64,000 nucleotides of DNA from Sulfolobales archaeon (lineage in GTDB: Archaea > Thermoproteota > Thermoprotei_A > Sulfolobales > NBVN01). The position numbers were made by a program, and so were the translations under genes. The stretch is taken from assembly GCA_026419835.1 (NCBI GenBank), contig JAOAKQ010000002.1, forward strand, positions 142,015-206,014. The letters run 5' to 3'. The notes under the pieces were generated by a model. That model made no database searches and had not been told where the DNA came from. It saw only the letters and a list, made by a program, of their open reading frames with translations. How positions within the stretch are numbered: position 1 is the first letter of the stretch; each line of letters begins with the position of its first letter. This document shows positions 4,657 to 49,258 of the stretch, in pieces.

Positions 4657-6654
4657 GTGCTTAAGGATTTGAGTGCAGGTATAAGCTCTGTCGAAGTATA
4701 CTGCTCGATGTCTGAGCGAGGCTCTCGGGAGCTCAAGCCTAAGCTGAGTATGACCTCCGTAGACTTAGCTGTAGTAGTTAGAGAGTTGAAGAGCTTGGGG
4801 AGCCGCGTTGTTAGGTCTGTACTCATGCCGACTAGGGACGTACTGATCTTCGAGCTAGTTGAAGGTAGTGATGTAGTGTATCTCGTAGTAGAGGGAGGTA
4901 GGAGAATACATACCTCTAAAAGTATATATACATCCGAATCCGTTGGAACGGCTAGACCTTTTAGAAAGCTCTTAGAGGGATCGAAGCTCGTCGACATCTC
5001 TCAAGTAGATTTCGAAAGAGTGGCTGTACTTAAATTCAGAAGGGGGGCGGCGGTCTACAGTCTCTACGTAGAACTCCTTCCCAGGGGGGTCATAGCCCTA
5101 GTTAACGACGAGGGGAGGGTCGTGGCGGTAAACAGGAGGTTTGTGGGTAGAGATAGGTCGGTAGCTGTAAGCCTCAACTACTCTCCTCCCCCACTCATCT
5201 CTAACTTCATGGAGTTGAGCGACGCGGAGGTAGCTAAGCTGGCTGAGAAGTTCGATGGAACTCTCGCGCAGTTTCTCGTCAGAGGCCTTGGAGTACCTCC
5301 TGAATTCGTTAACGAGGTGCTGAGTGAGAAAGAGAGGTCCGCTAAGCTATCCCAACTGGAGGTGGGCAGCCTACTCCAACTCCTAGGCAGAGTTCGCCAG
5401 TTCGTAGGTAGAACGATCGAGAGGCCTTCTCCATGCGCTATCTTAGTCGATGGGAAGCCGACCGGTTTCTTCTCCTTTAAACCATCTGGGATCCCCAGTG
5501 GCGCTAGAGTAGCTGGGTTTAGCTCTATGAATGAGCTCCTGGACTACTACTTCAAGTACCTGGACGAGGCTACCCTAAGAGAAGCGGAGCTGGCGAGAAT
5601 CCGGGAAGCGGAGGCGGCTATTGAGAAGACACTGCGCGAAGCTGAGGAGAACCTAGAGAAGATCTCGAAGAGGTTAGGTGAGGTTGGGGGTGCTCTAGGT
5701 CTTTTGGAGAAGTACTACTACGAAGTCGAGACCGCCTGGTCTTGCTGTAGAAGGGTAGTTAAGGAGAGAGGGTGGGAATACGTCGGTGAGTGCGGTGTTG
5801 TTGGTGCTGACCCTAGGAGGGGGTTAGTAAGGATCCAGCTACCCGGTGGTGCGCTGGAGCTTCAACTCCACAGGGACGTTAATCAGCTGTACAGCGAGTT
5901 GAGGCGGGAGTACGACCACCTGAGCGAGAAGCTGAATAGAGCTAGAGAGACCGTGAAGGACCTAAGAGCTAAGCTGGAGGAGGTGACTCAGCGTAAGCGT
6001 GCGCTCGAATCGCTGAAGCTAAGACCTAGGAGAACTGCGTGGTTCAGTAGGTTCATCTGGATCGAGACGTCAAGTGGTTTTCTAGCTATTGGGGGTAGGG
6101 ATGCTTCTCAGAACGAGCTGATCGTGAGGAAGTACCTCAAACCTAAAGACATATTCATGCACGCAGACGTTCACGGAGCTTCCGCTTTCGTCGTACTCAC
6201 CGGCGGCGCTGAGGTGCCTGAGAAAGATCTGAGAGAGGTGGCCGGCCTAGCGGCCTCCTACAGTAAGGCGTGGAAAGCGGGACTGAGCTCCGTAGACGTC
6301 TTCTGGGTTCGGGGTGAGCAGGTGGGGCTTTCAGCACCTCCAGGTGAGTACCTACCCAGAGGTTCCTTCATGGTGTACGGTCAGAAGAACTTCATAAGAA
6401 ACGTTGAGCTCATCCTAAGCATAGGGATAGCGTACCTAGGCGACTCGTACGACTTAGTGGTCGCACCACCGGAACTAGCGGAAGCTAGGTCGGAAGCTAG
6501 TGTAACTATAGCTCCCGGAGATACGAGCGTGGAGCTAGCTGCGAGAGAAATTAGGGAGTACTTAGTTCAGAAGTGCCCCGACGTTCGCGGTCTCACAGTG
6601 CGCGATATAGCTAAGGTGCTCCCAGGTAGGGTTAGGGTAGTTAGCAAGAAGTAG
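4657..6654 (+). CDS. NFACT-family protein (archaeal Rqc2/NEMF/FbpA homologue, ribosome quality control)
   Basis: Has an N-terminal NFACT-N-like region, a long coiled coil, and the NFACT-R/DUF814 motif GGRDASQNELIVRKYLKPKDIFMHADVHGASAFVV. The likely true start is ATG 4750 (MTSVDLAVVVRELK...). Confidence 0.8.
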   Translation: MLKDLSAGISSVEVYCSMSERGSRELKPKLSMTSVDLAVVVRELKSLGSRVVRSVLMPTRDVLIFELVEGSDVVYLVVEGGRRIHTSKSIYTSESVGTARPFRKLLEGSKLVDISQVDFERVAVLKFRRGAAVYSLYVELLPRGVIALVNDEGRVVAVNRRFVGRDRSVAVSLNYSPPPLISNFMELSDAEVAKLAEKFDGTLAQFLVRGLGVPPEFVNEVLSEKERSAKLSQLEVGSLLQLLGRVRQFVGRTIERPSPCAILVDGKPTGFFSFKPSGIPSGARVAGFSSMNELLDYYFKYLDEATLREAELARIREAEAAIEKTLREAEENLEKISKRLGEVGGALGLLEKYYYEVETAWSCCRRVVKERGWEYVGECGVVGADPRRGLVRIQLPGGALELQLHRDVNQLYSELRREYDHLSEKLNRARETVKDLRAKLEEVTQRKRALESLKLRPRRTAWFSRFIWIETSSGFLAIGGRDASQNELIVRKYLKPKDIFMHADVHGASAFVVLTGGAEVPEKDLREVAGLAASYSKAWKAGLSSVDVFWVRGEQVGLSAPPGEYLPRGSFMVYGQKNFIRNVELILSIGIAYLGDSYDLVVAPPELAEARSEASVTIAPGDTSVELAAREIREYLVQKCPDVRGLTVRDIAKVLPGRVRVVSKK

Positions 6655-8379: not shown

Positions 8380-8664
8380 ATGTCCTACTCGCATCCCCTA
8401 GACATCGAAGGTCTAGCTCTGAACGGATTCGTGAGAGAGGCTGAGTTGGTTAATTGTGGCAATGGGTCTGCGAAGAAGGCTAAACTCAGAGTTAAGCTCA
8501 TCGACGGCAGGCTACTGGAGACTGAGTGCCTTCCTTACGAGAGAATAGCTAGGTCGTACCTAGTCGTAGTGAAGTACTTAGAGTTGGGTAGAGCGATCTC
8601 GAGTAGAGATATCGGTGAGCTCACTAAAATCTCCGAGTTTGATTACTCCCAAGATGAAGCTTGA
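8380..8664 (+). CDS. hypothetical protein
   Basis: 94-aa ORF. ATG preceded by GGGAGGGT. No family recognised. Its 3' end overlaps repeat copy C. Confidence 0.5.
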   Translation: MSYSHPLDIEGLALNGFVREAELVNCGNGSAKKAKLRVKLIDGRLLETECLPYERIARSYLVVVKYLELGRAISSRDIGELTKISEFDYSQDEA

Positions 8665-8717
8665 GAACCCTTAAACAATAAGAATAAAGAAGAATCCGAA
8701 CAATAGAATTGAAAGGA
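8646..8717 (-). repeat. post-stop intergenic repeat, copy C (72 nt, minus orientation)
   Basis: The reverse complement reads tcctttcaattctattgttcggattcttc...tattgtttaagggttctcaagcttcatcttgggag. It aligns end to end with copy A (17918-17989). Confidence 0.7.
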
Positions 8718-10839: not shown

Positions 10840-10905
10840 CTTTCGTTGGACTACGCAAAACGTTCTAGAACCGTAGATTTTTATTCGAGGTCCGTGATTT
10901 AGTGA

Positions 10906-12479: not shown

Positions 12480-12875
12480 TCAGGTTTTAGGTCGCAGTAT
12501 GTATCTTTTTTCAATTCTCTCAAAAACTTTTAAGTCCATGTTTTCTAGGGGATTCTGAATTTTCAATGTTTTCGGTTGCCCGCTTTCTATATCGTAAACT
12601 ATGTAGAGCCAGTATCTCTCTCTTTCTCTCAATGCCACCTCAGCCTCAGCTTCAGTGAGTTCCGCATAGATTTCTAGACCTTTATGCCCCTTTACCTCTA
12701 TTAGTCTTACTTCACCTGTAGATGGGTTCACGCTCCTTATGTCGTAATGTTCTGTTTCCGGCATCAAAGTGGGTATTCGTCCTTCAGCTATTTCATCAGC
12801 TAGCATTTTTTCAATAGCTTTCCTTTCTACTTCCCTTTTAACGTCCTCGGGTACGTCTTCGGGGAGTTTCAGCAC
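12480..12875 (-). CDS. PD-(D/E)xK nuclease-fold protein (DUF3883-like); possibly a 5'-truncated remnant
   Basis: D45 (HYDIRS) followed by E60-V-K62 (LIEVKG) fits the restriction-endonuclease-like core. The frame stays open 57 more codons upstream, to the TAA at 13047-13049, with no ATG/GTG/TTG. Visibly AT-richer than neighbouring genes. Confidence 0.55.
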   Translation of the reverse strand: MLKLPEDVPEDVKREVERKAIEKMLADEIAEGRIPTLMPETEHYDIRSVNPSTGEVRLIEVKGHKGLEIYAELTEAEAEVALRERERYWLYIVYDIESGQPKTLKIQNPLENMDLKVFERIEKRYILRPKT

Positions 12876-13035
12876 AAGTTCTACGAAATGTATGCATCCA
12901 ACCGCGTCGGACGTGACTACATCAATATCTGAGTTTCTAATCCATGTTTCCTCTGGGACCCTCAGTCCGTAATCTTCGAGTCGAGATCTGTATACATCTA
13001 TAGTGTCAAGAATTTCGGTTATGTCTTTTATTCTG

Positions 13036-14367
13036 TCAACAATATCTTACCTCACCGTATCTAATACGCGTTTCCCAACTCCTCACCGCTCTACCTGTAG
13101 GTTTGTCGATAAGTATAGGTATTAAGTGCTTCAGCTCGTTTTTAGATAGCTGAGTATTTCCCGTGAGAACTCTCACAATACCTCTAGCTCTCTCGGAGTT
13201 TAACCACTCAGTGATCTCTCTTAACTCATCTAGTTGAGCGCCCTTGGGCGGGATTACTACGTTTACGTGATTCTCCGCTACGAAGACAACGCCCTCCGGG
13301 ACTACCGCTGCTCTTAGAACGGCTTTCTTAGGGTGTCCGACGACTCTATTTACGACGATTGCCGGCCCCCTGAGCGCCTTCTCCGGTGGCCACCTCACGT
13401 GCTGAGGCTTGCCCGGCTTGTTTTTCAGTACTAGCTCGCCGGGTCCTATGTTGTGCGACCAGATTAGGAGAACTCCGCTCGAGCTATCCTCGGTTAGCTT
13501 ATCCCTATGCTCGTTCCAGACCACCTGCCCCGTGACGACCTCGTAGCCTAGGTCTCCGAGCGTCGGCGATTTCTCGAGCATCTCTGACAGCTCACGCGCT
13601 CTCTCGGAGAACACCGTGAAGTCACCGCGCTCGAGCACGTAGTCGCTGCGTGGAGGCTCCCCGGGTGCGTACTTCCTCAGCACCAGGACCTGGAAGGTGT
13701 GGTTCACCTCCGGGAATAGGCGCGGGTTCTCGATAACTCTCAGGTACTCTATCGACGCGGTTCTAGCGATGAACTTCCTCAGCTTCTTGAAGTAGGCGCC
13801 GCAGTTCATGGAGGAGGAGACCACCAGGCCGACGTAGCCGCCCGGCTTAACCAGCTTGAGGGCTAGGTACACGAAGAGGGAGTATATGTTGACTCTACCG
13901 TACAGTACCTCTTCGAACCTAGCCCTCAGCTCCTCGCTCGGGCTGAACTCGAAGTAGGGTGGGTTCGTGACCACTACGTCGAACTCCTCCTTGAGCGGCT
14001 TGGTGAGGGAGTCTACCACCTCTACGCGAGCTTCCGGAACTACCCTGCTAGCTATCTCGGCGAGCTCCGGGTCTATCTCCCAGCAGTAGAGCTCCGGGTC
14101 CGCGAAGTACTCTCTAGCGGATAGAAGGAACTCGCCGGTCCCGCACGCTGGGTCGAGTACTCTGGGGCCCACCTTCCTGGGGATCTTCGAGAGAACCTCC
14201 TCTCTAAGACTTCTAGGAGTGAAGAACTGCCCCATTCTAGCTCTACGCTCGGGGTCTCTGGAGGTAGCGTACCTCAGACTCTCTGCGTGGAGCTCTTCGA
14301 AGACCACGGCCTTCCCTAGAAGACCTCTATAGGAGAAATCATAAAGCCGTGGACCGCCTATGCGCAC
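13036..14367 (-). CDS. gamma-class N6-adenine DNA methyltransferase (M.TaqI/Eco57I-like) with C-terminal target-recognition region
   Basis: FFTP, then SAM motif I LDPACGTGEFL, then motif IV VVTNPPYFEF. About 200 aa of C-terminal TRD-like sequence follow. Confidence 0.85.
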   Translation of the reverse strand: MRIGGPRLYDFSYRGLLGKAVVFEELHAESLRYATSRDPERRARMGQFFTPRSLREEVLSKIPRKVGPRVLDPACGTGEFLLSAREYFADPELYCWEIDPELAEIASRVVPEARVEVVDSLTKPLKEEFDVVVTNPPYFEFSPSEELRARFEEVLYGRVNIYSLFVYLALKLVKPGGYVGLVVSSSMNCGAYFKKLRKFIARTASIEYLRVIENPRLFPEVNHTFQVLVLRKYAPGEPPRSDYVLERGDFTVFSERARELSEMLEKSPTLGDLGYEVVTGQVVWNEHRDKLTEDSSSGVLLIWSHNIGPGELVLKNKPGKPQHVRWPPEKALRGPAIVVNRVVGHPKKAVLRAAVVPEGVVFVAENHVNVVIPPKGAQLDELREITEWLNSERARGIVRVLTGNTQLSKNELKHLIPILIDKPTGRAVRSWETRIRYGEVRYC

Positions 14368-14475: not shown

Positions 14476-14874
14476 CTGAAGATCGGTGTTTACATTCCCG
14501 GTGAGCTAGCTAGTGAAGTGGAGAAGCTGGTGAAGAGCTCCGGGGTAGGCTCTCTATCGAAGATAGTTCAAGAAGGTCTCAGACTCTACATAGCTGAGCA
14601 CAGCTGGAGATCCGGCGGTGAAGTTGTTGGCGCCCTAGGGGTTCTATACGATCACGACGTAGACCGCGTAGATGAAGAGCTGACGAACGTGCAGCACAAG
14701 TACATGGAGGCCATAATTTCCACACTGCACGTACACTTAGACGCAAGGCACTGCCTTCTAGTAATCTCCGTTAGAGGAAATACTAGCACTATAAAAGCAC
14801 TCGCCGACGAACTGGAGAAGTTGAGGGGCGTTAAGTTAGTTAGGTACATGCTGATGCCGAAGCATGCTTACTGA
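14476..14874 (+). CDS. nikR: NikR-type ribbon-helix-helix nickel-responsive regulator (CTG start inferred)
   Basis: The C-terminal metal-binding domain has the YDH..., QH...ISTLHVHLD...C pattern. The RHH beta-strand and helix 1 (KIGVYIPGELASEVEKLV) lie upstream of the ORF-track GTG at 14518. Codons available after the TGA at 14461 are GGT ACG AAG TCC CTG. GAGGT at 14462-14466. Confidence 0.75.
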   Translation: MKIGVYIPGELASEVEKLVKSSGVGSLSKIVQEGLRLYIAEHSWRSGGEVVGALGVLYDHDVDRVDEELTNVQHKYMEAIISTLHVHLDARHCLLVISVRGNTSTIKALADELEKLRGVKLVRYMLMPKHAY

Positions 14875-15860
14875 GCTCGGTTCTGAAGTACTTTTAAGCT
14901 ATTTAGAAACTCAACTACGTACTTGACGAAGACCTCGGGAGATTCTTCGTGGGGGAGGTGGCCGACCCCCTCCATAACTACGAGCGAAGCGTTTACTTTC
15001 TCACAAAGTTCTACGCTACTCGCTAAGGGCACGAGCTCGTCTCTATCTCCGTGCACTACCAGAGTCGGCTCTCTAAGGTTAGCCAGGGACTTCGCGATGT
15101 CTGGAAACACGTAGTACTTCAAGATCCAGTAGAGACCTCTATCCCAATTCCTCGCTTTCAGCGGGTACTTATATACTTCCTCTACTTCGGGAGTTAGAAG
15201 ACTCTTATTATACCAAGCAGCTCTCAGTACCCGCTCTAGCGAACCTACGAGTCCCCTCACTAAGAGAGGTCCGTACTTATCGGATAGTAGAGGTATGCTG
15301 GTAATTACGACCTCATACCACTGCCTCGTTCTCGGCTTCCACGCAGGAGCTACGAGTAGTAGAGCGCTGACTAGTTCGGGATGCTCTAGTGCGAGTAGTA
15401 GCGCTAGTCCACCACCAGCTGAGTGACCTACTACTACCGGGTGGGTTACGTTCAATTTCTCCATAAATCTGCGGGTAAGCTTCAGAACCCCCTCGTACGT
15501 ATACGGATTGTACGGGGGAGCCCTCGGATCGACCCTCTCAGTTAGACCAAAGCCCGGTCTATCGAAAGCTAGTACTCTACAGTAGCTAGATAAACTGCCC
15601 ACGACGTATCTCCAAGATAGCGCACTAGCTCCAAAACCGTGAAGTAGAAGAAGAGTGCAGTTTCCAGAGCCTTCGTCGAGGTAGTGTATTTTAATACCGT
15701 CGACATTTACAAACTTACTACCAGGTAGAGCTAGGTCTTCAACTGGAGACCCTACTTCCGGAATTGGAATAGTAGCTAAAGTAAGTAGTAGAACCGCGAA
15801 AATAGCGACTACCTTAAGTACTCTTCTCTTTAAATACATGCTGAATCCATGCGTGCACAT
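14868..15860 (-). CDS. alpha/beta hydrolase, membrane-anchored or secreted
   Basis: HGFGAS oxyanion region, nucleophile elbow GHSAGG, C-terminal GHLPHEE. N-terminal hydrophobic segment. The likely start is Met8 (15839). Confidence 0.8.
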   Translation of the reverse strand: MCTHGFSMYLKRRVLKVVAIFAVLLLTLATIPIPEVGSPVEDLALPGSKFVNVDGIKIHYLDEGSGNCTLLLLHGFGASALSWRYVVGSLSSYCRVLAFDRPGFGLTERVDPRAPPYNPYTYEGVLKLTRRFMEKLNVTHPVVVGHSAGGGLALLLALEHPELVSALLLVAPAWKPRTRQWYEVVITSIPLLSDKYGPLLVRGLVGSLERVLRAAWYNKSLLTPEVEEVYKYPLKARNWDRGLYWILKYYVFPDIAKSLANLREPTLVVHGDRDELVPLASSVELCEKVNASLVVMEGVGHLPHEESPEVFVKYVVEFLNSLKVLQNRAQ

Positions 15861-16092
15861 GGACGACCCAGACCTCTCAGCTTCTTCTAGTAGTCTCGCA
15901 GGAGTTTAGTGAAGGGTGAATTAAAGAGTTAGACCGCGGCGTAGTACCGAAATGCGCTTAGAGCACCATTAGTATTATTACCTTCTTAGTAGTGGCTAGT
16001 GAGCTGTGACTACGTGTTCCGCAGATAGCCACTCTACTATATGATCAAAAACTCTCATTTTCGCTAGTTCTGCAGGTACTTGGTGTGGTTTC

Positions 16093-17247
16093 CTGAAGAT
16101 TGCGCTGGTTAGTGACTGGTACTATCCGAAGATAGGTGGTGTAGCTTCACATATGCACAACCTGGCAATTAAGTTAAGAAGTAGGGGGCACGAAGTCGCT
16201 GTAGTTACGAATGATAGAGAAACTGGGAAAGAGTACGAGCTAGAGCGTAGTGGAGTGAGGTTAGTAAAGATTCCCGGTTTCGTGAGCCCCCTTTTCGATG
16301 TCAATATAACGTACAGCATGAGGTCCTCCAAAGACCTATCGGAGTTTCTTAGCGATTTTGATGTAGTGCACTCGCACCACGCATTTACACCGCTAGCTCT
16401 TAAAGCGGTAAAAGCTGGGAGAATTTTGAAGAAGGCTAGCGTACTTACAACACACAGTATTTCGCTCGCGCACGACTCAGAGCTTTGGGATATTGTCGGA
16501 TTGACGGTTCCGATATTCTCTACATACCTCAAATATCCTAGTAGAGTAATTGCCGTTAGTAAGGCCGCTGAGGAGTTCATCAAGCACTTCACCGATGTGC
16601 CGGTTTCTGTGATACCTAATGGAGTAGATACTAACGTATTTAGACCGGCTAGAAACGGGAGGGAGAAGGAACTTGCTAAAGCTAGGTTCGGATTATCTGG
16701 AAGAAGTGTAGTTCTGTATGTAGGTAGAATGAGCTACAGGAAGGGACCCCACCTACTGCTCAGCGCTTTCGCTAACATTGATGACGAGAAAGCCGTTCTC
16801 GTGATGGTCGGCACCGGGGACATGCTGCCGCTTCTTAAGCTACAAGCTAAGCTACTGGGAGTAGAGAGCAGGGTCATGTTCATGAACTACGTTTCAGACG
16901 CACTCCTACCTGAGATATATAGAGCGAGCGACGTATTCGTAGCACCATCCATAGTAGCTGAAGCATTCGGATTGGTGATTCTGGAGGCAATGGCCTCCGG
17001 AGTGCCGGTAATCGCGACATCCGTTGGTGGAATACCCGAAATACTCTCAAGTAGTGGAGCCGGCATGCTGGTCGCTCCAAGCAGCGAGCGGGAGTTGAGT
17101 GAAGCTATTTCAGCGCTCCTAGCGGACCGCGGTCTTAGAGAAATCTATGGAGAAAATGGGAGGAGAGTAGTTGAAGAAAAGTACTCATGGGATATCGTCG
17201 TCGAGCAGATCGAGAGAGTGTACATTGAAGCTATTTCAGAGCTTTAA
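16093..17247 (+). CDS. GT4-family (GT-B) glycosyltransferase (CTG start inferred)
   Basis: C-terminal E-x7-E region (AEAFGLVILEAMASGVPVIAT). The GT4 N-terminus LKIALVSDWYYPKIGGVASH lies upstream of ATG 16153. The frame is open from the TGA at 16042-16044 with no ATG/GTG/TTG. CTG at 16093. Confidence 0.8.
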   Translation: MKIALVSDWYYPKIGGVASHMHNLAIKLRSRGHEVAVVTNDRETGKEYELERSGVRLVKIPGFVSPLFDVNITYSMRSSKDLSEFLSDFDVVHSHHAFTPLALKAVKAGRILKKASVLTTHSISLAHDSELWDIVGLTVPIFSTYLKYPSRVIAVSKAAEEFIKHFTDVPVSVIPNGVDTNVFRPARNGREKELAKARFGLSGRSVVLYVGRMSYRKGPHLLLSAFANIDDEKAVLVMVGTGDMLPLLKLQAKLLGVESRVMFMNYVSDALLPEIYRASDVFVAPSIVAEAFGLVILEAMASGVPVIATSVGGIPEILSSSGAGMLVAPSSERELSEAISALLADRGLREIYGENGRRVVEEKYSWDIVVEQIERVYIEAISEL

Positions 17248-17588: not shown

Positions 17589-17915
17589 GTGAAGAGGCCT
17601 CCGTGCGAGATTAAGGTTAGGTACGTACTTCCAGCTGTGAGAGCGGCTCTAGTATCCGTCCTAGAGAGAGAATTCGGATTGAGCGTGTATCAGATAGCCA
17701 AGATTCTCGGAGTTACCCCCGCCGCCATCTGCAACTACAAATCCTACCGTAGGTCTAGTAGAAGAGTGTATGAAGAGCTTCTAAGTAGAGAAGAATACAT
17801 GACCGAACTAAGAAAGTGGGCTAGGAAGCTAGTTGATGGAGATGTAGATGCTGGAGACGCTCTCTGCGTTCTCTGTAGGAGAATATACATCGACCTAGAG
17901 AAAGCGACTCAGTGA
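17589..17915 (+). CDS. small predicted HTH transcriptional regulator
   Basis: 108 aa. HTH-like LSVYQIAKILGVTPAAICNY and a C-terminal CxxC. Family not firmly identified. Confidence 0.5.
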   Translation: MKRPPCEIKVRYVLPAVRAALVSVLEREFGLSVYQIAKILGVTPAAICNYKSYRRSSRRVYEELLSREEYMTELRKWARKLVDGDVDAGDALCVLCRRIYIDLEKATQ

Positions 17916-17917
17916 AG

Positions 17918-17989
17918 CCCTTTCAATTCTATCGTTCAGATTCTTCCGCGTCTTTATTGTCCGAGGGTCTATAAGTTTTATCTTGGGAG
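17918..17989 (+). repeat. post-stop intergenic repeat, copy A (72 nt)
   Basis: ccctttcaattctatcgttcagattcttccgcgtctttattgtccgagggtctataagttttatcttgggag. There are 2 nt between the TGA (17913-17915) and the element. Confidence 0.7.
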
Positions 17990-18086
17990 AAGTCGGAGAA
18001 CTCTAGGTTAAATGGCTAATTCGTGGACGAAAGCTGGGAAATCTTACTTATAGACCTCCTACCGAGCACATATACTAGGTGGTGTT

Positions 18087-20893: not shown

Positions 20894-20955
20894 CTATGTA
20901 GTTCTAATACTCTAGCGGTTAAATTCTTTATTACTACAAGCCCGGCCTCCGAGTA

Positions 20956-21003
20956 CCCCCAAGGTAAAGTTTATAAACATACTGAACGATGGAGTTGAAA
21001 GAA
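20956..21003 (-). repeat. post-stop intergenic repeat, copy D (short 48-nt version, minus orientation)
   Basis: The reverse complement reads ttctttcaactccatcgttcag-tatgtttataaactttaccttggggg. It begins at the nucleotide immediately after the Sm gene stop (21004-21006). Confidence 0.6.
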
Positions 21004-21267
21004 CTACCTCTCGAACTCGTAGTTTATGGCTATGTACACTATCTGACTACCTCTTATTAAGACAGTGCCGTAGTCCGCTACTACCTCGGGGTTTTCATTG
21101 TTCCACGCAATTTCTCTGCAGTCGCTGAGAACTACGTTCATAGTGCTATCAACCATAACCAACCTCCCGACGTACGCTGAACCGTTCTTAACTTTTACTA
21201 GCGCGCTCTTCGCAATGCCGGCTCTAAGCATTTTAAGTGGACTCTCAACCTTCGCTTGAGAGGACAC
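21004..21267 (-). CDS. archaeal Sm-like (LSm) protein
   Basis: Sm1/Sm2 pattern: LVKVKNGSAYVGRLVMVDSTMNVVLSDC ... VLIRGSQIVYI. Confidence 0.85.
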   Translation of the reverse strand: MSSQAKVESPLKMLRAGIAKSALVKVKNGSAYVGRLVMVDSTMNVVLSDCREIAWNNENPEVVADYGTVLIRGSQIVYIAINYEFER

Positions 21268-24402: not shown

Positions 24403-24732
24403 GTGTCTCGAATGTACAGAGCTGTGTACGATGCGCTACTAAGAGGTCTTCCCGAGGAAGTTGCTTGCTTAGCGAAGCTGGGTGAGCACTTGTTTTCTAG
24501 AGGTTTCTGCGTTGGAACGCATACTTCATTCATATGCTCCTACGGTGGGAGCTTAGTTAAAGTTTCTCCACAGGTAGTTAGACCCCAGTACATAGTTCAC
24601 GAACTAGCGCACGCTGGTACTGTGAAGATCGTCGTAGAGAGCTCAAACCACGAATTTCTAGTTAGCGTGGTTTCGGATATATACAGAACGCTGAAGGAGT
24701 GCGGTGTAGTTCTCAAACTAATTCCGGAGTAG
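24403..24732 (+). CDS. hypothetical protein
   Basis: 109-aa ORF. No family recognised. Confidence 0.45.
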   Translation: MSRMYRAVYDALLRGLPEEVACLAKLGEHLFSRGFCVGTHTSFICSYGGSLVKVSPQVVRPQYIVHELAHAGTVKIVVESSNHEFLVSVVSDIYRTLKECGVVLKLIPE

Positions 24733-24733
24733 T

Positions 24734-24838
24734 CCCTTTCAATTCTATCGTCCAGATTCTGCGTTCCGTTTTCCTTCTCTATCGTTCAGATGCCTCTACG
24801 TTCCTATTGTTTGCGGGTTTTAAGCTTTATCTTGGGAG
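24734..24838 (+). repeat. post-stop intergenic repeat, copy B (105 nt, with internal duplication of the 5' module)
   Basis: ccctttcaattctatcgtccagattctgcgttccg...tctctatcgttcagatgcc...tattgtttgcgggttttaagctttatcttgggag. There is 1 nt between the TAG (24730-24732) and the element. Its 3' end contains the stop codon of the convergent epimerase gene. Confidence 0.7.
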
Positions 24839-25780
24839 TAGCCCTAGTTCTCGAGCTAGTGCTTGGGCCGTCAGCCTGATTGCTTCAGCACTCGTATACC
24901 TAGGTCTCCAACCTAGAGACTTAATCTTATCTATAGATAGGAGCATGAGCTTAACGTCCCCGGGCCACCCCCTCCCGTCCGGGGTTCCCCCCGAGAAGAC
25001 TACCCTAGGTCTTACACCGAGCACCTCACTCACTATCCTAGCTATTTCCGATACCTCGATCCAGTCTTCGTTTCCCACGTTAAGCACGCTGAAGGCCGCT
25101 GAGCTCTTAGCAACTGCGAGTAGAGTGGCTTCAACGGCGTCATCTACGTAGAGGTAGCTCTTTCTCTGCCTACCATCGCCCAGAACCTCAAGCACGGAGC
25201 TCTCCCTACTTAACTTCATGAGGAAGTCGTACACTACTCCATGCCTCATTCGCGGTCCCACTATGTTAGCGTACCTAGCGACAACAACCTTCAAACCGTA
25301 TAGAGCTGAGTAACTGTGAAGTATTAGCTCTGCGGCCGCCTTCGACGCTCCGTAGACGCTGATAGGCCTTAGAGTGTGTTCTTCACTTGTAGGTATCGCC
25401 GAAGCATCTCCGTAGACTGTGGAAGAACTCGCGAAAACCACGGTTTTAACCGTCCCCAGGATCCTGGAGGCTTCAGCAACATTAAAAGTTCCACGCACGT
25501 TCTCTTCGAAGTGAATTCTGGGTTCCGTAGAGCTTACCCTCACTTCCGGGTTCGCAGCAAAGTGGTACACTACTTCAGCTTCCTTAAGCGCGCTTAAGCA
25601 AGTCTTCAAGTCCTTGACGTCTCCTACGACTAGCTCTATCTTACCGCGAACCCTATCTAGGTTATCTAGAGAACCGCTACTTAAGTTATCTAGAACGGTG
25701 ACTTCGAAGCCATCGCTAACTAGTCTCTCAACTAGGTGACTTCCAATAAATCCAGCACCGCCGGTAACCACGACCTTCAC
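24827..25780 (-). CDS. NAD-dependent epimerase/dehydratase (extended SDR, GalE-like)
   Basis: VVTGGAGFIGSHLVERL Rossmann motif and catalytic YGASK. Confidence 0.85.
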   Translation of the reverse strand: MKVVVTGGAGFIGSHLVERLVSDGFEVTVLDNLSSGSLDNLDRVRGKIELVVGDVKDLKTCLSALKEAEVVYHFAANPEVRVSSTEPRIHFEENVRGTFNVAEASRILGTVKTVVFASSSTVYGDASAIPTSEEHTLRPISVYGASKAAAELILHSYSALYGLKVVVARYANIVGPRMRHGVVYDFLMKLSRESSVLEVLGDGRQRKSYLYVDDAVEATLLAVAKSSAAFSVLNVGNEDWIEVSEIARIVSEVLGVRPRVVFSGGTPDGRGWPGDVKLMLLSIDKIKSLGWRPRYTSAEAIRLTAQALARELGLLPR

Positions 25781-28972: not shown

Positions 28973-29261
28973 TAAGACGAACTTCTTATTTCAACTAATT
29001 TCGAGGCCTCCGCACCGAGCTCATTAAGATCCGCTTATATCAGCTAAAGAAGAGAATGATTTGTATATCACTTCAGCTCTGTAATAGCGACTGATATTCC
29101 ATTCCAGAATAACGTATTTGGTGGAATACGTGAAAATTAGCAGGTACTTAAAGTTGTTAAAGATAGCTAGATACGCTCCAGTAATAGCACTAGCCGTATC
29201 CGCCGTCTTAAGCAGTGAGATCGGTACAACCGGTGAAAGAATACCGAAGGGCGAAGACCCT

Positions 29262-32012: not shown

Positions 32013-33254
32013 GTGAGGTCTCTAGGTTCGATACTACCGTACGTAGTTGCTGTGATAATCGCTCCTACGGCTGTAGTAGCTTACTCGAGCAGCTTCGGCA
32101 CTGTCTGCGTAGTTAACTACCTAATAAACTCGGTAGTTATTGAGCCTAGTAGTGAGTACAGCGGGCTGCTGTACCTAGAGAGCCCTGCGAACTTTACGTA
32201 CCTAGGCATAAACCAGACAGTGCGCATCGCACTATCTCGAGGACCTACGCTCGAGAGCGGAGTGCCCACCATCAAGGTCACTCGAGGAGTGCCCGCGTAC
32301 GCTTACGTAGTATTTGAAGTACGCACCTGCTCCAAGGACTTTGGCGCAGCCCTAGCTCTAGTTAGAGAAGCGCTCAACAACCCGACCGAAGTTCTCAGAG
32401 AATCGACCTACTATGGGGAGGAGATACCGACCGAGTTCCTGAGAGAGCCTCCTGAAGTAATTAAAAGTGAAGTTAGGGGGGCCTTCGAAGACTGGTTGAG
32501 GGATTTTGCTTGGTATAGGTCTATCGACAACCTATCTAAAGCACCTCTACTAGTCTCAATTTACGCAGCGAGATTCGTATACAGCTCCGGCTACATAAGG
32601 TACAGCGCCCGCCTACTCCCGCAGACGCTGGAGGACGTACTCAGGTCGCGGGAGGGTGACTGCGATGATATGAGCAGACTTCTAGCGGCTCTACTGTGGT
32701 CGTACGGCGTGCCGACCGTAATTGCCTACGGGTACGTAGCTATCCCGGGCTTCCATATGAGGTCGTCCATCGGTGGGTTCGAGTATGTCTTCAGCGAGGG
32801 AGGACCCCACGCATTCGTACTAGCGTACGTCCCCAGGCACGGGTGGATCTCCCTAGACTTCCTAGCCGGCTCCCTCCTAACTAACTCATTCGTCTTCTGG
32901 GGAACGACTACTAAAGTAGAGGTAACCCGGGAAGTCGTTAGAGAAGTTGAGGAGTTCCACGCGAAGCTCTCCGGAAGGCAGTTCATGGCGATCCTAGGTC
33001 CCGGAGACCCACGTCTTGAAGACGTCGAGTCCCTGGAGGCCTACATAAACGCATCACTCGGTTTCCGAATTCGCGAAGACCTAGCGCCCCCGGCTACACA
33101 GACCGAGGTAGCTACTTACACCGTGGATAGACCCGGAGCGGGCCTCCCTCTAGACGCAACCACGGTAGGACTAGTCCTACTAACCGCAGCCGCAGCTCTA
33201 GTAGCACTATCAGCACTAGCTCTAGCCGTTAAAACCCGGTACGCTCGCAGGTAG
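32013..33254 (+). CDS. transglutaminase-like (Cys-His-Asp) domain protein, membrane-anchored at both ends
   Basis: REGDCDDMSRLLAALLWSYGVPTVIAYGY (catalytic Cys) and PHAFVLAY...HGWISLD (His/Asp). N-terminal and C-terminal hydrophobic segments. Confidence 0.75.
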   Translation: MRSLGSILPYVVAVIIAPTAVVAYSSSFGTVCVVNYLINSVVIEPSSEYSGLLYLESPANFTYLGINQTVRIALSRGPTLESGVPTIKVTRGVPAYAYVVFEVRTCSKDFGAALALVREALNNPTEVLRESTYYGEEIPTEFLREPPEVIKSEVRGAFEDWLRDFAWYRSIDNLSKAPLLVSIYAARFVYSSGYIRYSARLLPQTLEDVLRSREGDCDDMSRLLAALLWSYGVPTVIAYGYVAIPGFHMRSSIGGFEYVFSEGGPHAFVLAYVPRHGWISLDFLAGSLLTNSFVFWGTTTKVEVTREVVREVEEFHAKLSGRQFMAILGPGDPRLEDVESLEAYINASLGFRIREDLAPPATQTEVATYTVDRPGAGLPLDATTVGLVLLTAAAALVALSALALAVKTRYARR

Positions 33255-33353
33255 CTGCGCGCAGCTAACTCCGCGAGCTCGGGGCGACTCCCGCGAGAAC
33301 TTCTTGAAGCACGGAGAAGAGAGTTAAAAATACTCAGCTACATATAGATTCTG

Positions 33354-33429: not shown

Positions 33430-34298
33430 CTAAGAACTTTATCGATAGTAACTGATATCGAGTAAGAAAGCTAGGCACTGCTGCTTTACTTCTTTCTAAG
33501 AGATGTTTCTCGATTTAGGATCGTAGCTGTGGCCTCTATACGCAGCAATATTTAATTTCTTTATGAGAGATCCATGCAGAGGCTTAGAGAACTGCTCAAA
33601 TATAGAATTCCATTAATTTCTTTAGATAGGAGAAAGTGTTCTATTAACCTACATTCCATTACAATATCCTTCATTGCCACACATCCTTGACGATTTATCG
33701 TCTAAATAGACATCTCTCTGATTCTGACCTATCACTCGCTAGTAGAACGGCCTTAACATCACGCTCCACCACGTCAAGCAAGGCTTTAGCGTATCGCTCG
33801 CTTGCGGCCGGAATACACAATACGTCTTTCACTCTTAAGCTCGTCCTTATATACCACTCGCCAGGACCTTGCTAACTCTAGGATTCTTCTGCGTAATATC
33901 ATTTCGCTCTGCCTACTACCAATGAACCTAACAACAGTGGAGTGAAGGAGAATCGCCGCTAGAAAGCTCGAAACTATCGCCAATAATAACGTTAACACCT
34001 CTAGCACCACTCAGATATTTACCGGGTAACCTTGAAACGCTGCGAACCGGTGGTAAGCACTTACTCTTGGCAGGGACGGAGATATTATTGAACCTACATT
34101 ACGATCGCTAATCTACCGTTAGGTTGCGATGACGTCGTCATGTTGAGTGCTCAGTCTAAAATCCGACCGTATCTCATAACAATCACCGTCTCGCGGAGTT
34201 TCTGGTCAGTCTAATCTTGGCGCTCTGTCCGCACTTCTCGACGATTTAAAGGAAATGTATCTACTTACCGGTATTTATGTTTCGCTGAGGAGTATGTC

Positions 34299-46426: not shown

Positions 46427-48058
46427 CTACCTTCTAAGTCTCGGGTTAACGATCTCGTCTAGAGCCATACCGAAGAGAACGAATCCCGCTGCCAGCATTA
46501 TTAAACCGGCTATTGGCGGTATTATCCACCACCACGCGTTCATTAGTAGAGCTCCCTGGTAGTAGGCTTCGTTAATCATCCTACCCCACGTAGCCGCCTC
46601 CGGGTCTCCGAAACCGAGTAGCTGTATAGCTGCTTCGAAGAAGACAACGCCGGGTACCGACATAACGATTCTGTAGACTAGGTAGGGCACTAGCTGCGGC
46701 GCTATGTGCCTAATCATAATTCTCCACTCACTAGCGCCGAGAGCTTTGGCCGCCTCTACGTAGAGACTGTTCTTCAAAGTCATAGTCCACTGCCTAATTA
46801 TTCTAGCACCCCCCGGCCAGGCGGTGGCTATTAGAACTGCGTAGATGTTCCACAGAGACCTCCCGAACACCAGGCCGACGACCATGACTAGCGGGATCAC
46901 CGGTACGAAGTATATTACGTCTGTGAGTAGGGTTATCGAGTGGTCTGCGTAGGTCCCGGCCCTGTAGCCAGCCACCAGTCCGAAGACCAGTGCCACCATG
47001 GTAGTTACGGTAGCAACGGCAACCCCTAGAACGACGGCCGTTCTAGCTCCGTAGACGAACTGAGTCCACACATCGTTTCCGTAGGCTGTAGTGCCTAGAA
47101 CTCCGAAGGCGTCTCCCTTGATGAACACTCTAACTGGTGCGTAGCTAACTCTGAAATAGCCGTTCTGGCACCTCATCATGAAGTTCATCGGGTCGCAGTA
47201 GTACGTTACGTTTACAGCTATGTACAGCCTAGTATTTCTCTCCAGTAGGAGGTCGCGCGCAGCGTTTACCTCACCGAAGTGCTGCTTAGCTCTCTCTCTT
47301 AGCTCCGGGTCCTGAATAGACAGTATGTACGGCTGGAGCATGTTTCTCATGGGGTTCGGCAGCACGGCTGCCGCTGAAACTCTTAGAGTCCCCTTGTAGT
47401 ACTGGAATATCCACCCAACTCTCGTGGTAACTACATCGTACAGTGAGTATATTCCTCTAGGAATATCTACCTTAGCTACCCTACCTCCAGGCATTAGCAC
47501 TTCCAGGACCTTCTTCTCGTTTCTCTCTATAATATCCTTGTTGAACGCCAGAGTATCTACGTTGTACCACGCCTCGGACCTACCCTCTAGGTATGTCGCG
47601 TTAAACGCTATCCTCACGTCTAGAGACTTGGCCGGTCTGTACGGATACGCCACGTATTCTTCAGATACTAGCAGCAGGCTGGCGTAGCCGTTCCCCGTGA
47701 ATTCTATTTCAAAGCCGTCCTTAATGCGCAGCACATTTATTTTTACGTCTCCACTAACAACTCTCTTCTCTATCACGAAGCCGCTCAGTGTTTTAACTAT
47801 ATTGCGGGGCGTGTCGGGCGGTGCTGCCCAATCCGGCACCGCGAAATCCGCGGCTACGACATCTCTTATTGCCGGACTGTACGGCGTTAGTACCGGTGCT
47901 AAACCTCCTAGTAGTACCAGTATAGCTATGAAAGCTATACCGGTTACCGCGGTCTTCTTTCTGAAGACTAGTACTAGAACCTCCGTAAGTCTAACTAGTG
48001 CGAGCGTAGTGGTCGACCTAATCCGCGATGTACCCGAAGTGCGGGCCACTCTAGCCAC
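46427..48058 (-). CDS. ABC peptide transporter permease, DppC type, with about 250-aa extracytoplasmic insertion after TM1
   Basis: The C-terminal 210 aa are a standard BPD_transp_1 core (...ALGASEWRIMIRHIAPQLVPY..., ...ALDEIVNPRLRR). Residues about 60-330 lie between TM1 and the core and have no counterpart in the 361-aa DppC at 914-1999. Confidence 0.8.
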   Translation of the reverse strand: MARVARTSGTSRIRSTTTLALVRLTEVLVLVFRKKTAVTGIAFIAILVLLGGLAPVLTPYSPAIRDVVAADFAVPDWAAPPDTPRNIVKTLSGFVIEKRVVSGDVKINVLRIKDGFEIEFTGNGYASLLLVSEEYVAYPYRPAKSLDVRIAFNATYLEGRSEAWYNVDTLAFNKDIIERNEKKVLEVLMPGGRVAKVDIPRGIYSLYDVVTTRVGWIFQYYKGTLRVSAAAVLPNPMRNMLQPYILSIQDPELRERAKQHFGEVNAARDLLLERNTRLYIAVNVTYYCDPMNFMMRCQNGYFRVSYAPVRVFIKGDAFGVLGTTAYGNDVWTQFVYGARTAVVLGVAVATVTTMVALVFGLVAGYRAGTYADHSITLLTDVIYFVPVIPLVMVVGLVFGRSLWNIYAVLIATAWPGGARIIRQWTMTLKNSLYVEAAKALGASEWRIMIRHIAPQLVPYLVYRIVMSVPGVVFFEAAIQLLGFGDPEAATWGRMINEAYYQGALLMNAWWWIIPPIAGLIMLAAGFVLFGMALDEIVNPRLRR

Positions 48059-49079
48059 CCGTTCTTATCCTGGGGTCTATAGCTACTAGCACCAATTCTG
48101 CTACAAATAGCGAGACAACCGTTAGGAATGCCGATATGGTGAAGAATGCCGACATCACTGGGAAGTCCCAGTTTAGTAGTGCTTGGTACGAGAAGTAAGC
48201 TATGCCGGGCCAGTTGGAGATGATCTCGAATATTATAGCACCACCGAAGATACCGGGTATTGCGTAAGCTAGAGATATAACGATCGGCGGTCTGACGTTG
48301 GGTATTACGTGCTTCCTCAAGGTAGACTTCTCGTCGAGACCCTTAGCTAGTGCTGTGGTTACGTAGTCCTGCCCCATTTCAGATACTACTAGCTGTCTTA
48401 TGTAGTATATCCACCCACCGGACCAAGCTATTAATGCCGCTAACAGCATGGGTGACATGTACCACAGCAGGTACCTGAACTGGTCCCAATCTCTAATACC
48501 TATCTCGGGGGCTCTCACCGGTAGCGGGAATATGTATGTGTTGAACATCACTTTCGGTAGGTAGGCTAGCGTGTAGTATATTATCAGTAGTACGAGCCAC
48601 CCGGGGAGCATGTTGGAGAATATTGAGGCCTGGATTATTGCCGTATCAAGAGGCTTACCTCTGTTCTTCGCTGCCGTTATGCCTAGGTAGAACCCTAGGA
48701 CTATTGGAAGTATCGTAGTTATAGTGTAGAACGATAGCGTGTACGGTAGTCTAATAGCTATCTCGTTCATAACCGGTTTCTGCGTGTAGACAGATATTCC
48801 GAACTCAAATACAATTACGTTTCTCAGGTACATCATGAGCTGGTCCGGTATGAGGGGTCTATCGAGGCCGAACCTCTTTATAGTCTCGCCAATCCACAAG
48901 CTAAACCTAGGGTCTTCAGCCGTTCTCCTCAGCGATGCTAGAAGAGGGTCGGCAGCCATATTACCACCAGCGGCAACTACCGGTAGAACTCTAATGGCTA
49001 TAAAGTACACCATCAACACTATGACATAGGTTCCCAGCAATCTAATACCCGTTTTAGCTATGAAAGCACCGGCACCCAT
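48051..49079 (-). CDS. ABC peptide transporter permease, DppB type
   Basis: Permease core with a C-terminal ...LVAIDPRIRTGG. The ORF-track start at 49169 runs through the tandem repeats. ATG 49079 (MGAGAFIAKTG...) is the likely start. Confidence 0.8.
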   Translation of the reverse strand: MGAGAFIAKTGIRLLGTYVIVLMVYFIAIRVLPVVAAGGNMAADPLLASLRRTAEDPRFSLWIGETIKRFGLDRPLIPDQLMMYLRNVIVFEFGISVYTQKPVMNEIAIRLPYTLSFYTITTILPIVLGFYLGITAAKNRGKPLDTAIIQASIFSNMLPGWLVLLIIYYTLAYLPKVMFNTYIFPLPVRAPEIGIRDWDQFRYLLWYMSPMLLAALIAWSGGWIYYIRQLVVSEMGQDYVTTALAKGLDEKSTLRKHVIPNVRPPIVISLAYAIPGIFGGAIIFEIISNWPGIAYFSYQALLNWDFPVMSAFFTISAFLTVVSLFVAELVLVAIDPRIRTGG

Positions 49080-49123
49080 ACTTTCACCCAGTATGTGTGT
49101 ACTTGCTCTTAAATATGCTTTAA

Positions 49124-49187
49124 TGAAGCACGTATTCTGAGAACTAAATATTCTGAGAACTAAAACCACCCAGGGTTTAAGACCCAG
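49124..49187. repeat. two adjacent perfect tandem direct repeats (16 nt x2, then 14 nt x2) in the binding-protein/permease intergenic region
   Basis: tattctgagaactaaa at 49124-49139 and again at 49140-49155. cccagggtttaaga at 49160-49173 and again at 49174-49187. An A/T-rich tract follows (49188-49250). Confidence 0.85.
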
Positions 49188-49258
49188 GGTTTAAGAGATA
49201 ATGAAATTTATTGAAAAATAATATTTAAAGTTAAAAAAATGTCGTGGCTACTTTATGA

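Follow-up and report, generated by a model that had tools for sequence, protein, structure and literature searches.

A small mobile unit in a Sulfolobales archaeon that appears to join a leader-type promoter to a solitary CRISPR-type repeat

Background

To our knowledge, solitary repeats of the CRISPR type (short palindromic repeats, clustered and regularly interspaced) with promoters of their own have until now been reported as weapons used by viruses and plasmids; solitary repeat units (SRUs) were reportedly treated by Faure et al. in 2019. Here we describe a short dispersed element that is present as four copies, A to D, in a 64-kb stretch of DNA (the window) from an uncultured Sulfolobales archaeon; the four copies examined belong to one species. 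Our reading, to which we assign a probability of roughly 0.55, is that the family is a mobile unit of ~74 bp, non-autonomous and similar to a miniature inverted-repeat transposable element (MITE), in which a leader-type promoter is combined with one solitary CRISPR-type repeat ending in ATTGAAAG.

The closest described systems each share part of this architecture. The SRUs that viruses, prophages and plasmids carry, or RNA anti-CRISPRs (Racrs; Camara-Wilpert et al. 2023, PMC10651486), have, like the element, a single CRISPR-like repeat that lies outside an array and not beside cas genes, with a promoter immediately upstream in the sense orientation, which for the element is predicted with a position weight matrix (PWM) in copies A, B and C. 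Unlike them, the element is not found on a virus, prophage or plasmid but as a 74-bp multi-copy insertion among chromosomal housekeeping genes; it has no match in IMG/VR or in the phage collection, and it abuts or invades gene 3' ends, where its predicted transcript would be antisense to the host gene. Crenarchaeal type I-A loci (Sulfolobus family I) have in common with it, at their leader end and first repeat, a 24-nt repeat with ATAGAATTGAAAG as its last part, a TATA box that precedes this repeat by 17-25 nt, and a promoter that in copy B is nearly identical to that of a genuine type I-A array; it differs from such a locus in having no spacers or regular array, a leader-like part of only ~45 nt, dispersed insertions, a repeat that scores below the Rfam gathering threshold, and no adjacent cas1, cas2, cas4 or csa1 that could be found.

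MITEs with outward promoters include the SM MITEs of Sulfolobus and the Correia elements of Neisseria. The element is, like MITEs, small, multi-copy, absent from orthologous sites, represented by deletion and duplication variants, and bordered at some copies by short flanking repeats; like the promoter-bearing ones, it carries a predicted promoter able to read into neighbouring genes. Unlike MITEs, it has no terminal inverted repeats, its target duplication is clear only at copy B, one of its termini is of the CRISPR type, and no parent insertion sequence (IS) is known. It also differs from palindrome-associated transposable elements (PATE) derived from IS200/IS605 in that it has no significant or conserved hairpin and its left-flank tetranucleotide is not fixed. 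A last comparison is with CreA (CreTA) and other regulatory RNAs that resemble CRISPR RNAs, such as Cas-regulating repeat-like RNAs (see bioRxiv 10.1101/2024.01.05.574328). RNAs of the CreA type are encoded in or beside cas operons and target a promoter, and in them a spacer-like sequence is bordered by repeat-like ones on either side. The element resembles them in its layout, in which complementarity to a host gene follows a CRISPR-like repeat that is degenerate or solitary; this could permit action of a Cas effector on a host target without immunity. Neither the cas-operon location nor the paired repeats nor a promoter target is seen in the element.

Four copies of one element

The four copies that an initial annotation had placed in the window are all confirmed. 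A 24-mer of copy A (CTTTCAATTCTATCGTTCAGATTC) occurs three times at <=3 mismatches, versus no occurrence in 100 shuffles, and a hidden Markov model (HMM) built from the four copies and run with nhmmer recovers copy A at E 1.1e-21, copy C at 2.4e-19, copy B in two pieces at 1e-15 and 1.7e-05, and copy D at 2.6e-09. With this model, no other site in the 64 kb falls below E 1. Two supposed degenerate copies, at 28983-29050 and 10840-10905, are ruled out by the HMM scan and by scores no better than those of ~54% of random windows. Pairwise identity among the copies is 69-81%. In an alignment of A, B and C, 24 of 76 columns are variable, none of them in the 13-nt tag end of the repeat and none in the 10-nt terminus on the promoter side, and both ends are thus invariant. 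The copies and the direct repeats that flank copy B are as follows.

17916-17991, minus strand (promoter-to-repeat sense): copy A, whole unit (nhmmer E 1.1e-21)
24733-24838, minus strand: copy B, a 106-nt insertion including one GAGTAG (nhmmer; empty sites in two relatives, L063 and L066)
24726-24732, plus strand: left flanking direct repeat GGAGTAG of copy B, containing the TAG stop of a 109-aa gene (single copy in relatives)
24835-24841, plus strand: right flanking direct repeat GGAGTAG of copy B (single copy in relatives)
8644-8717, plus strand: copy C, a 74-nt insertion (nhmmer E 2.4e-19; its removal restores the ancestral end of an open reading frame (ORF))
20954-21003, plus strand: copy D, a short form with an internal deletion of ~24 nt (nhmmer E 2.6e-09; absent in the four relatives, L063-L066)

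Copy A lies between the TGA stop codon (17913-17915) of a 108-aa gene of helix-turn-helix (HTH)-like type and an Lrp/AsnC gene; copy B between the 109-aa gene (stop 24730-24732) and a convergent epimerase gene; copy C within the last codons of a 94-aa ORF, 42 nt past the stop codon of a convergent metallophosphoesterase gene; and copy D directly after the TAG stop (21004-21006, minus strand) of an Sm/LSM gene, upstream of the promoter of an S-adenosylmethionine (SAM) synthetase gene. The gaps between stop codon and element that had been given before (2 nt for A, 1 nt for B, 0 nt for D and 42 nt for C) are correct, and B and C do reach into the stop region of a convergent gene: in both cases the last codons and the stop of that gene are read from the element. 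The statement that the upstream genes are unrelated holds for A and B, whose upstream genes were compared.

The repeat module

On the opposite strand, the 5' module of the initial annotation is a 24-nt sequence, GAATCTGAACGATAGAATTGAAAG. In copies A, B and C this sequence ends in ATAGAATTGAAAG, which contains the 8-nt CRISPR RNA (crRNA) tag ATTGAAAG, whose role is established from Cas6 processing in Sulfolobus and Pyrococcus. The modules of the four copies are as follows.

17920-17943, minus strand: repeat module of copy A, GAATCTGAACGATAGAATTGAAAG, 24 nt (CRISPR-DR45 17.5 bits; CRISPR-DR25 19.3 bits, E 0.088)
24736-24759, minus strand: distal repeat module of copy B, R1, GAATCTGGACGATAGAATTGAAAG, abutting the stop codon
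24772-24793, minus strand: proximal degenerate repeat module of copy B, R2, GCATCTGAACGATAGAGAAGGA (by alignment; tag end damaged)
8692-8715, plus strand: repeat module of copy C, GAATCCGAACAATAGAATTGAAAG (CRISPR-DR25 23.7 bits, E 0.0053; DR45, DR6 and DR47 also listed)
20979-21001, plus strand: truncated repeat module of copy D, ATACTGAACGATGGAGTTGAAAG

In A, C and D the repeat is solitary, with no other within ~100 bp; copy B has the second, degenerate module R2, which lies 12 nt from R1 and belongs to an internal tandem duplication of ~36 nt.

The tag end is identical at 13/13 positions to published Sulfolobus CRISPR repeats, and the modules match these repeats overall at 15-17 of 24 positions without gaps. 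Identity to the consensus of Rfam CRISPR-DR45 is higher, at 18-19 of 24 positions (19/24 in copy A), and has a binomial P of ~4e-8 per fixed alignment at 19/24. When each copy was scanned against 4227 Rfam families, the top matches were CRISPR-DR25 and CRISPR-DR45, which align end to end with the 24-25-mer; the DR25 scores are 23.7 bits (E 0.0053) for C, 19.3 bits (E 0.088) for A and 13.6 bits for B, and those of DR45 are 16-17.5 bits. Two published probes complementary to pre-crRNA repeats, CTTTCAATTCTATAGTAGATTAGC for S. islandicus and CTTTCAATTCTATAAGAGATTATC for loci C and D of S. solfataricus, are likewise 24 nt long (PMC3315313), and their first 13 nt are those of the 5' module of the initial annotation; Sulfolobus repeat probes are also given in PMC4574026. 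A literature search for the exact repeat returned the 13-nt tag half alone, in papers on Sulfolobus CRISPR. Judged from these alignments, the likeness to a CRISPR repeat is beyond chance, and the module was probably derived from such a repeat, with a promoter reading into it.

This changes the interpretation of the module, which had been taken for a T-run-rich sequence like archaeal terminators. Its longest run of T is 3-4, no terminator-like site is called in the units, and its other strand is a 24-nt CRISPR-type repeat.

The promoter module and its orientation

Read as its reverse complement, the 3' module of the initial annotation is CTCCCAAGAT followed by AAA(A/G)CTTATAG, by GCTTAAAA or by GTTTATAA. 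It agrees with the transcription factor B recognition element (BRE) and TATA box of the genome's own tRNA and protein genes (GTAAGCTTATAAT, AAACACTTATAAC, GAGAGCTTAAAG and TCTTACTTATAGACC). The PWM was derived from 13 hand-picked native promoters of the genome, de novo motif finding by expectation maximization being noisy; a score of 8 bits is reached by just 0.07% of positions in the window. The boxes are as follows.

17968-17979, minus strand: BRE/TATA-like box of copy A, TAAAACTTATAG, 24 nt upstream of the repeat (PWM 8.6 vs 5.7 bits on the opposite strand)
24817-24828, minus strand: BRE/TATA-like box of copy B, TAAAGCTTAAAA, 24 nt upstream of R2 (PWM 11.4 vs 5.6 bits)
8656-8667, plus strand: degraded TATA-like box of copy C, GAAGCTTGAGAA, 25 nt upstream of the repeat (weak box)
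20966-20977, plus strand: TATA box of copy D, AAAGTTTATAAA, palindromic, 2 nt from the truncated repeat

Copies A to D score 8.6, 11.4, 5.7 and 9.1 bits on the strand directed at the repeat, and 5.7, 5.6, 3.3 and 10.0 bits on the strand of the initial annotation. The module is therefore promoter-like, as had been proposed, but in the other direction, the opposite strand scoring higher in A, B and C. The predicted promoter accordingly faces the abutting gene and not downstream; the box of D is palindromic. The likeness to the tRNA-Leu promoter noted earlier is no more than the general promoter consensus. The genes downstream of A and D keep promoters of their own; the one of the SAM synthetase gene next to D (ATAAAGAATTTAAC) is also seen in three of the four relatives with which the window was compared.

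From the TATA 8-mer to the repeat there are 24 nt in A, 24 nt in B and 25 nt in C, with a variable sequence, and this gap is lost in D; where present, it would put the start of transcription near base 1 of the repeat. The module of copy B is identical at 16/17 positions to the leader promoter (GAAAAAGCTTAAAACCC) of a genuine type I-A array (comparator locus L067), where it stands 17 nt from the first repeat.

An 11-mer of the TATA region of copy A (ACTTATAGACC; 17966-17976, minus strand) recurs 70 nt away at 18046-18056 on the plus strand, in the predicted TATA region of the Lrp gene, which makes a pair of nearly identical promoter boxes that diverge.

Insertion history

The genes that flank the element are ordinary and keep their synteny in four relatives; they encode an Sm/LSM protein, archaeal SAM synthetase, NAD-dependent epimerase, ROK kinase, Lrp/AsnC regulator, metallophosphoesterase and two small hypothetical proteins. 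We compared the syntenic stretches (21 kb) of these relatives, whose SAM synthetases are 88, 84, 81 and 78% identical to that of the window, together with a second stretch of the closest relative; L063 is the closest relative, L065 the 84% relative, L064 the 78% relative and L066 another of the four. Gene order is conserved, and in none of these stretches was the element found (nhmmer, E <= 10). Copy B is carried unchanged in two other, fragmented assemblies of the same species.

The empty sites allow the insertions to be reconstructed. Site B is empty in L063 and L066, where the 109-aa and epimerase genes converge with an overlap of 15 nt and one GAGTAA; in the window, GGAGTAG flanks a 106-nt insert on both sides, and the epimerase ends in LLPR, its last codons (CTC CCA AGA TAA) coming from the element, where the relatives' proteins end in LLRE or LLGK. 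At site C, the 94-aa ORF ends in EFD-YSQDEA by reading into the element; deletion of 8644-8717 gives an end in EFDVSG, with the stop at the same place as that of the closest relative (DFDISE), and there is no target duplication. At site D, a TAG stop is found at the same position in L064 and L065, which implies that the stop codon predates the element. Excision of B and C thus restores ancestral gene ends. In each insertion the gene on the repeat side kept a stop codon, and at B and C the convergent gene on the promoter side received new last codons and a new stop.

The copies were therefore inserted after the species split from its nearest sequenced relatives. Absence from the relatives' orthologous sites, taken with the restoration of ORF ends upon excision, indicates a lineage-specific mobile insertion rather than a conserved regulatory element, and the copies are very probably mobile insertions. 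The mobility that the initial annotation had suggested is thereby borne out, whereas its alternative of a 3' untranslated region (UTR) element, if taken as conserved for function, is contradicted by the absence from relatives.

In L065, the convergent epimerase and 106-aa genes at the site of copy B are separated by an unrelated G+C-rich stretch of 130 nt (5752-5881), and the epimerase is 15 aa longer at this junction; the 130-nt stretch implies that the junction has changed more than once.

Target site and termini

On the repeat side the copies are flanked by GGAGTAG, GAGGTAG, AGTGAAG and CAGATAC, and the left-flank tetranucleotides vary accordingly (GTAG, GTAG, GAAG and ATAC). Insertion appears to prefer a GRGTAG-like target, which is often a stop codon with its context. 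The abutment on stop codons is best explained by this target motif together with purifying selection; in a compact genome, insertions would persist just at gene 3' ends, which would strengthen this tendency. Copy C lies 42 nt from a stop codon and inside the end of another ORF, and it fits a target motif better than a function at stop codons.

Target-site duplications, which the initial annotation had proposed to look for, give a mixed picture. At copy B a perfect 7-nt GGAGTAG stands on both sides and is present once in the empty sites; it may represent either a genuine duplication of the target or a short recombination core. None is present at C, and the flanks of A and D agree at 5/7 positions, no more alike than non-cognate pairs. 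Over all copies, with junctions placed by inspection, the cognate flank pairs match at 5/7, 7/7, 5/7 and 2/7 positions and do not clearly exceed the non-cognate ones. The sequence TCGGAG was considered as part of the element and rejected, being native coding sequence at C.

The termini of the element are CTCCCAAGAT at one end and ATTGAAAGG at the other, of which about 4 nt (TCCC/GGGA) are complementary. Folding and inspection revealed no terminal inverted repeats or subterminal hairpins in the copies, and no partial HMM match flanks a transposase in the window, as would be seen for an autonomous element with the same ends. Neither cas gene, integrase nor transposase was found among the window genes examined or at the relatives' syntenic loci, except for an unrelated IS607-type element in L064. 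That element (14749-16684), a pair comprising a serine resolvase and a TnpB/Cas12f-like protein, lies beside the Lrp gene, and no similarity between it and the element described here was seen.

Searches for arrays, related sequences and RNA structure

No regularly spaced repeat array is present in the window. Outside it, a scan of JGI metagenomes with the 24-mer (three N positions) gave one chance match and no arrays; IMG/VR, scanned with the 24-mer, with the promoter end and with the tag half, gave chance matches with no extended similarity; BLASTN against phage records returned nothing relevant; and the matches listed for a degenerate pattern (CTTTCAAYTCYATYGTYCRG) against genome contigs are chance matches and bacterial.

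Loci for comparison were sought with the Cas2 protein SSO1404, the sequence of which was checked against PDB 2I8E. A single-sequence search gave 11 matches and a profile search 1315, and none of the best 120 of these 1315 comes from the clade of the element. Two Cas2 loci were examined, one with an array (L067), which served as the comparator, and one, L092, in which no array stands next to the adaptation module within the stretch. L067 (8066-17059 and 6240-7900) is a complete type I-A locus with csa1, cas1, cas2, cas4, a cas7-like gene, cas3, cas6 and an array of 37-nt repeats (CTTGCAAAAGAAAAATCCCATAAGAGGGAATTGAAAG) that end in GGAATTGAAAG. Upstream of csa1 in L092, a G+C-rich non-coding stretch (5742-6046) is the archaeal RNase P RNA (Rfam RF00373, 160 bits).

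The element shows no signal of RNA secondary structure on either strand (folding z -1.65 to +1.08). No intrinsic terminator is apparent, there being no run of >=5 T (the longest, in the orientation of the initial annotation, is 4) and no terminator-like site called. As a C/D-box small RNA (sRNA) the element is rejected; a CTGA is present but a C box (RUGAUGA) is not.

How the unit would work

The predicted promoter and its distance from the repeat suggest the following sequence of events. RNA polymerase would begin near base 1 of the repeat, copy the repeat and continue, antisense, through the abutting gene's last codons. Should the host possess Cas6 together with a type I-A or type III system suited to this class of repeat, the transcript would be cleaved 8 nt before the end of the repeat, yielding an RNA in which the tag AUUGAAAG is followed by sequence complementary to the neighbour's mRNA. 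Such a tagged RNA could occupy Cas proteins as a decoy, in the manner of an RNA anti-CRISPR; alternatively, it could direct a harmless antisense action on that mRNA or its type III cleavage. In the latter case the whole tag would pair with the flank of its target, so that autoimmune activation is not expected, complementarity between tag and flank being an established block to autoimmunity in type III systems.

That any Cas-dependent function is exercised by such an RNA today seems doubtful. A bolder proposal is that the unit is a self-spreading minimal CRISPR locus, which lands at a stop codon and turns host sequence into a 'spacer', making a guide antisense to the gene's mRNA with which a type III or type I-A effector would tune host genes without autoimmunity, or that such units seed new arrays around archaeal chromosomes; we consider it a long shot.

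Weighing the explanations

Several observations weigh against a mobile unit of promoter and CRISPR-type repeat. There are just four copies, all inside 16 kb and in one species. The TATA box of copy C is degraded, the best PWM match of 5.7 bits falling at a neighbouring site, and copy D is without the spacing between TATA box and repeat, so that not all copies can work as proposed. Neither a CRISPR array with the element's repeat nor a cas gene was found among the window genes examined, at the relatives' loci, in the JGI metagenome scan or in IMG/VR. The CRISPR-DR scores of 13.6-23.7 bits are all under the gathering scores of 36 (DR25) and 37 bits (DR45), and strict membership of a CRISPR-DR family is thus lacking. 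The likeness to a leader may in part be that of a general BRE/TATA consensus, AAGCTTAAA occurring at ordinary genes also, and the strong conservation of the ends could merely reflect the needs of a transposase or recombinase.

This last point leads to the alternative of a plain selfish insertion of the MITE type, the ends of which are sites for a transposase or recombinase supplied in trans and the CRISPR and promoter likeness of which is chance or fossil, with no present function. Lineage specificity and absence from four relatives, invariant ends around a variable middle (the 24 of 76 columns in A, B and C), the internal duplication of B and internal deletion of D that are typical of decaying copies, the flanking GGAGTAG at B, and the failure to find cas genes or arrays nearby would all be expected of it. 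It is made somewhat unlikely by the lack of terminal inverted repeats and subterminal hairpins, by the absence of a target duplication at C, and by the failure to find a transposase or integrase among the window genes examined or at the syntenic loci (bar the unrelated IS607-type element in L064); moreover, a match of 13/13 in the tag end and of 19/24 at a length of exactly 24 nt, preceded by an oriented promoter at 24-25 nt, is unlikely to arise by chance. An 'empty' or minimal CRISPR locus, consisting of a leader promoter and first repeat and serving as a potential seed for spacer acquisition, would have the same architecture as the unit, and the two repeat-like modules of copy B could be accommodated; in E. 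coli a leader and one repeat are enough for adaptation, and many dispersed leader-repeat loci occur in Methanocaldococcus jannaschii. The modules of copy B are, however, 12 nt apart in a tandem duplication of ~36 nt and not separated by a spacer of 35-45 nt, none of the four copies has acquired a spacer, the leader-like part is just ~45 nt long, and no adaptation genes were found nearby, which makes this explanation very improbable.

In a terminator-promoter cassette or 3'-UTR element, as proposed by the initial annotation, the repeat side would end the upstream transcript and the other module would start a downstream one. The unit is indeed rich in pyrimidines and T in the orientation of the initial annotation (for example ATTCTTCTTTATTCTTATTGTTT in copy C), like Sulfolobus-type terminator motifs (PMC3315313), and its TATA region is partly palindromic (AAGCTT), with copy D reaching 10.0 bits in that orientation. 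Such a cassette is nevertheless improbable: no T run reaches 5, copies A, B and C score only 5.7, 5.6 and 3.3 bits versus 8.6, 11.4 and 5.7 bits in the opposite orientation, transcripts at B and C would be solely antisense to the convergent gene, the genes downstream of A and D keep their own promoters, and the relatives manage without the element at the same sites. A family of structured sRNAs or C/D-box sRNAs would suit the intergenic positions near gene ends, where many archaeal sRNAs are found; it is scarcely credible given folding z scores of -1.65 to +1.08 on both strands, the missing C box, no coherent Rfam match outside the CRISPR-DR families, and the lack of conservation of the family in relatives. 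The small RNA gene family proposed by the initial annotation may thus apply just in the sense of a predicted crRNA-like transcript that bears the repeat, and not in that of a structured RNA. Our preferred reading remains a mobile unit that carries a leader-type promoter and a solitary CRISPR-type repeat.

Other features of the window

The region beside the tRNA-Leu gene differs between the window and its closest relative. In the window (12480-14367, minus strand) it comprises just a 131-aa NOV_C fragment and an Eco57I/N6-methylase gene, whereas the same place in the closest relative holds a full SNF2-NOV_C helicase, DUF499, DUF1156 and methylase genes (L071 11626-21350; L063 16385-21209). It has the look of a variable, defence-like island, present in reduced form in the genome of the window.

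At 49133-49196, two short tandem duplications, both perfect and next to each other (two copies of 16 nt and two of 14 nt), are located at the 5' end of a 372-aa ORF (48051-49169, minus strand) and in the short interval that precedes the next gene. After a tRNA-Gly gene, ~870 nt (33431-34298) contain no ORF of >=80 aa and match no Rfam family at gathering score; a 14-nt tandem repeat lies just upstream of this stretch, at 33246-33279.

Conclusions

The element provides a concrete case of insertions that rewrite the last codons and stops of genes, those of the epimerase and of the 94-aa protein, without destroying the genes. If its likeness to a CRISPR repeat is a fossil, it would still be a clean mini-insertion that targets stop codons in a hyperthermophile lineage. 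If our preferred reading is true, units of leader and repeat move on their own, which would bear on the multiplication and dispersal of CRISPR arrays in archaeal genomes, and they would offer a natural route by which CRISPR effectors may gain crRNA-like guides directed at the host.

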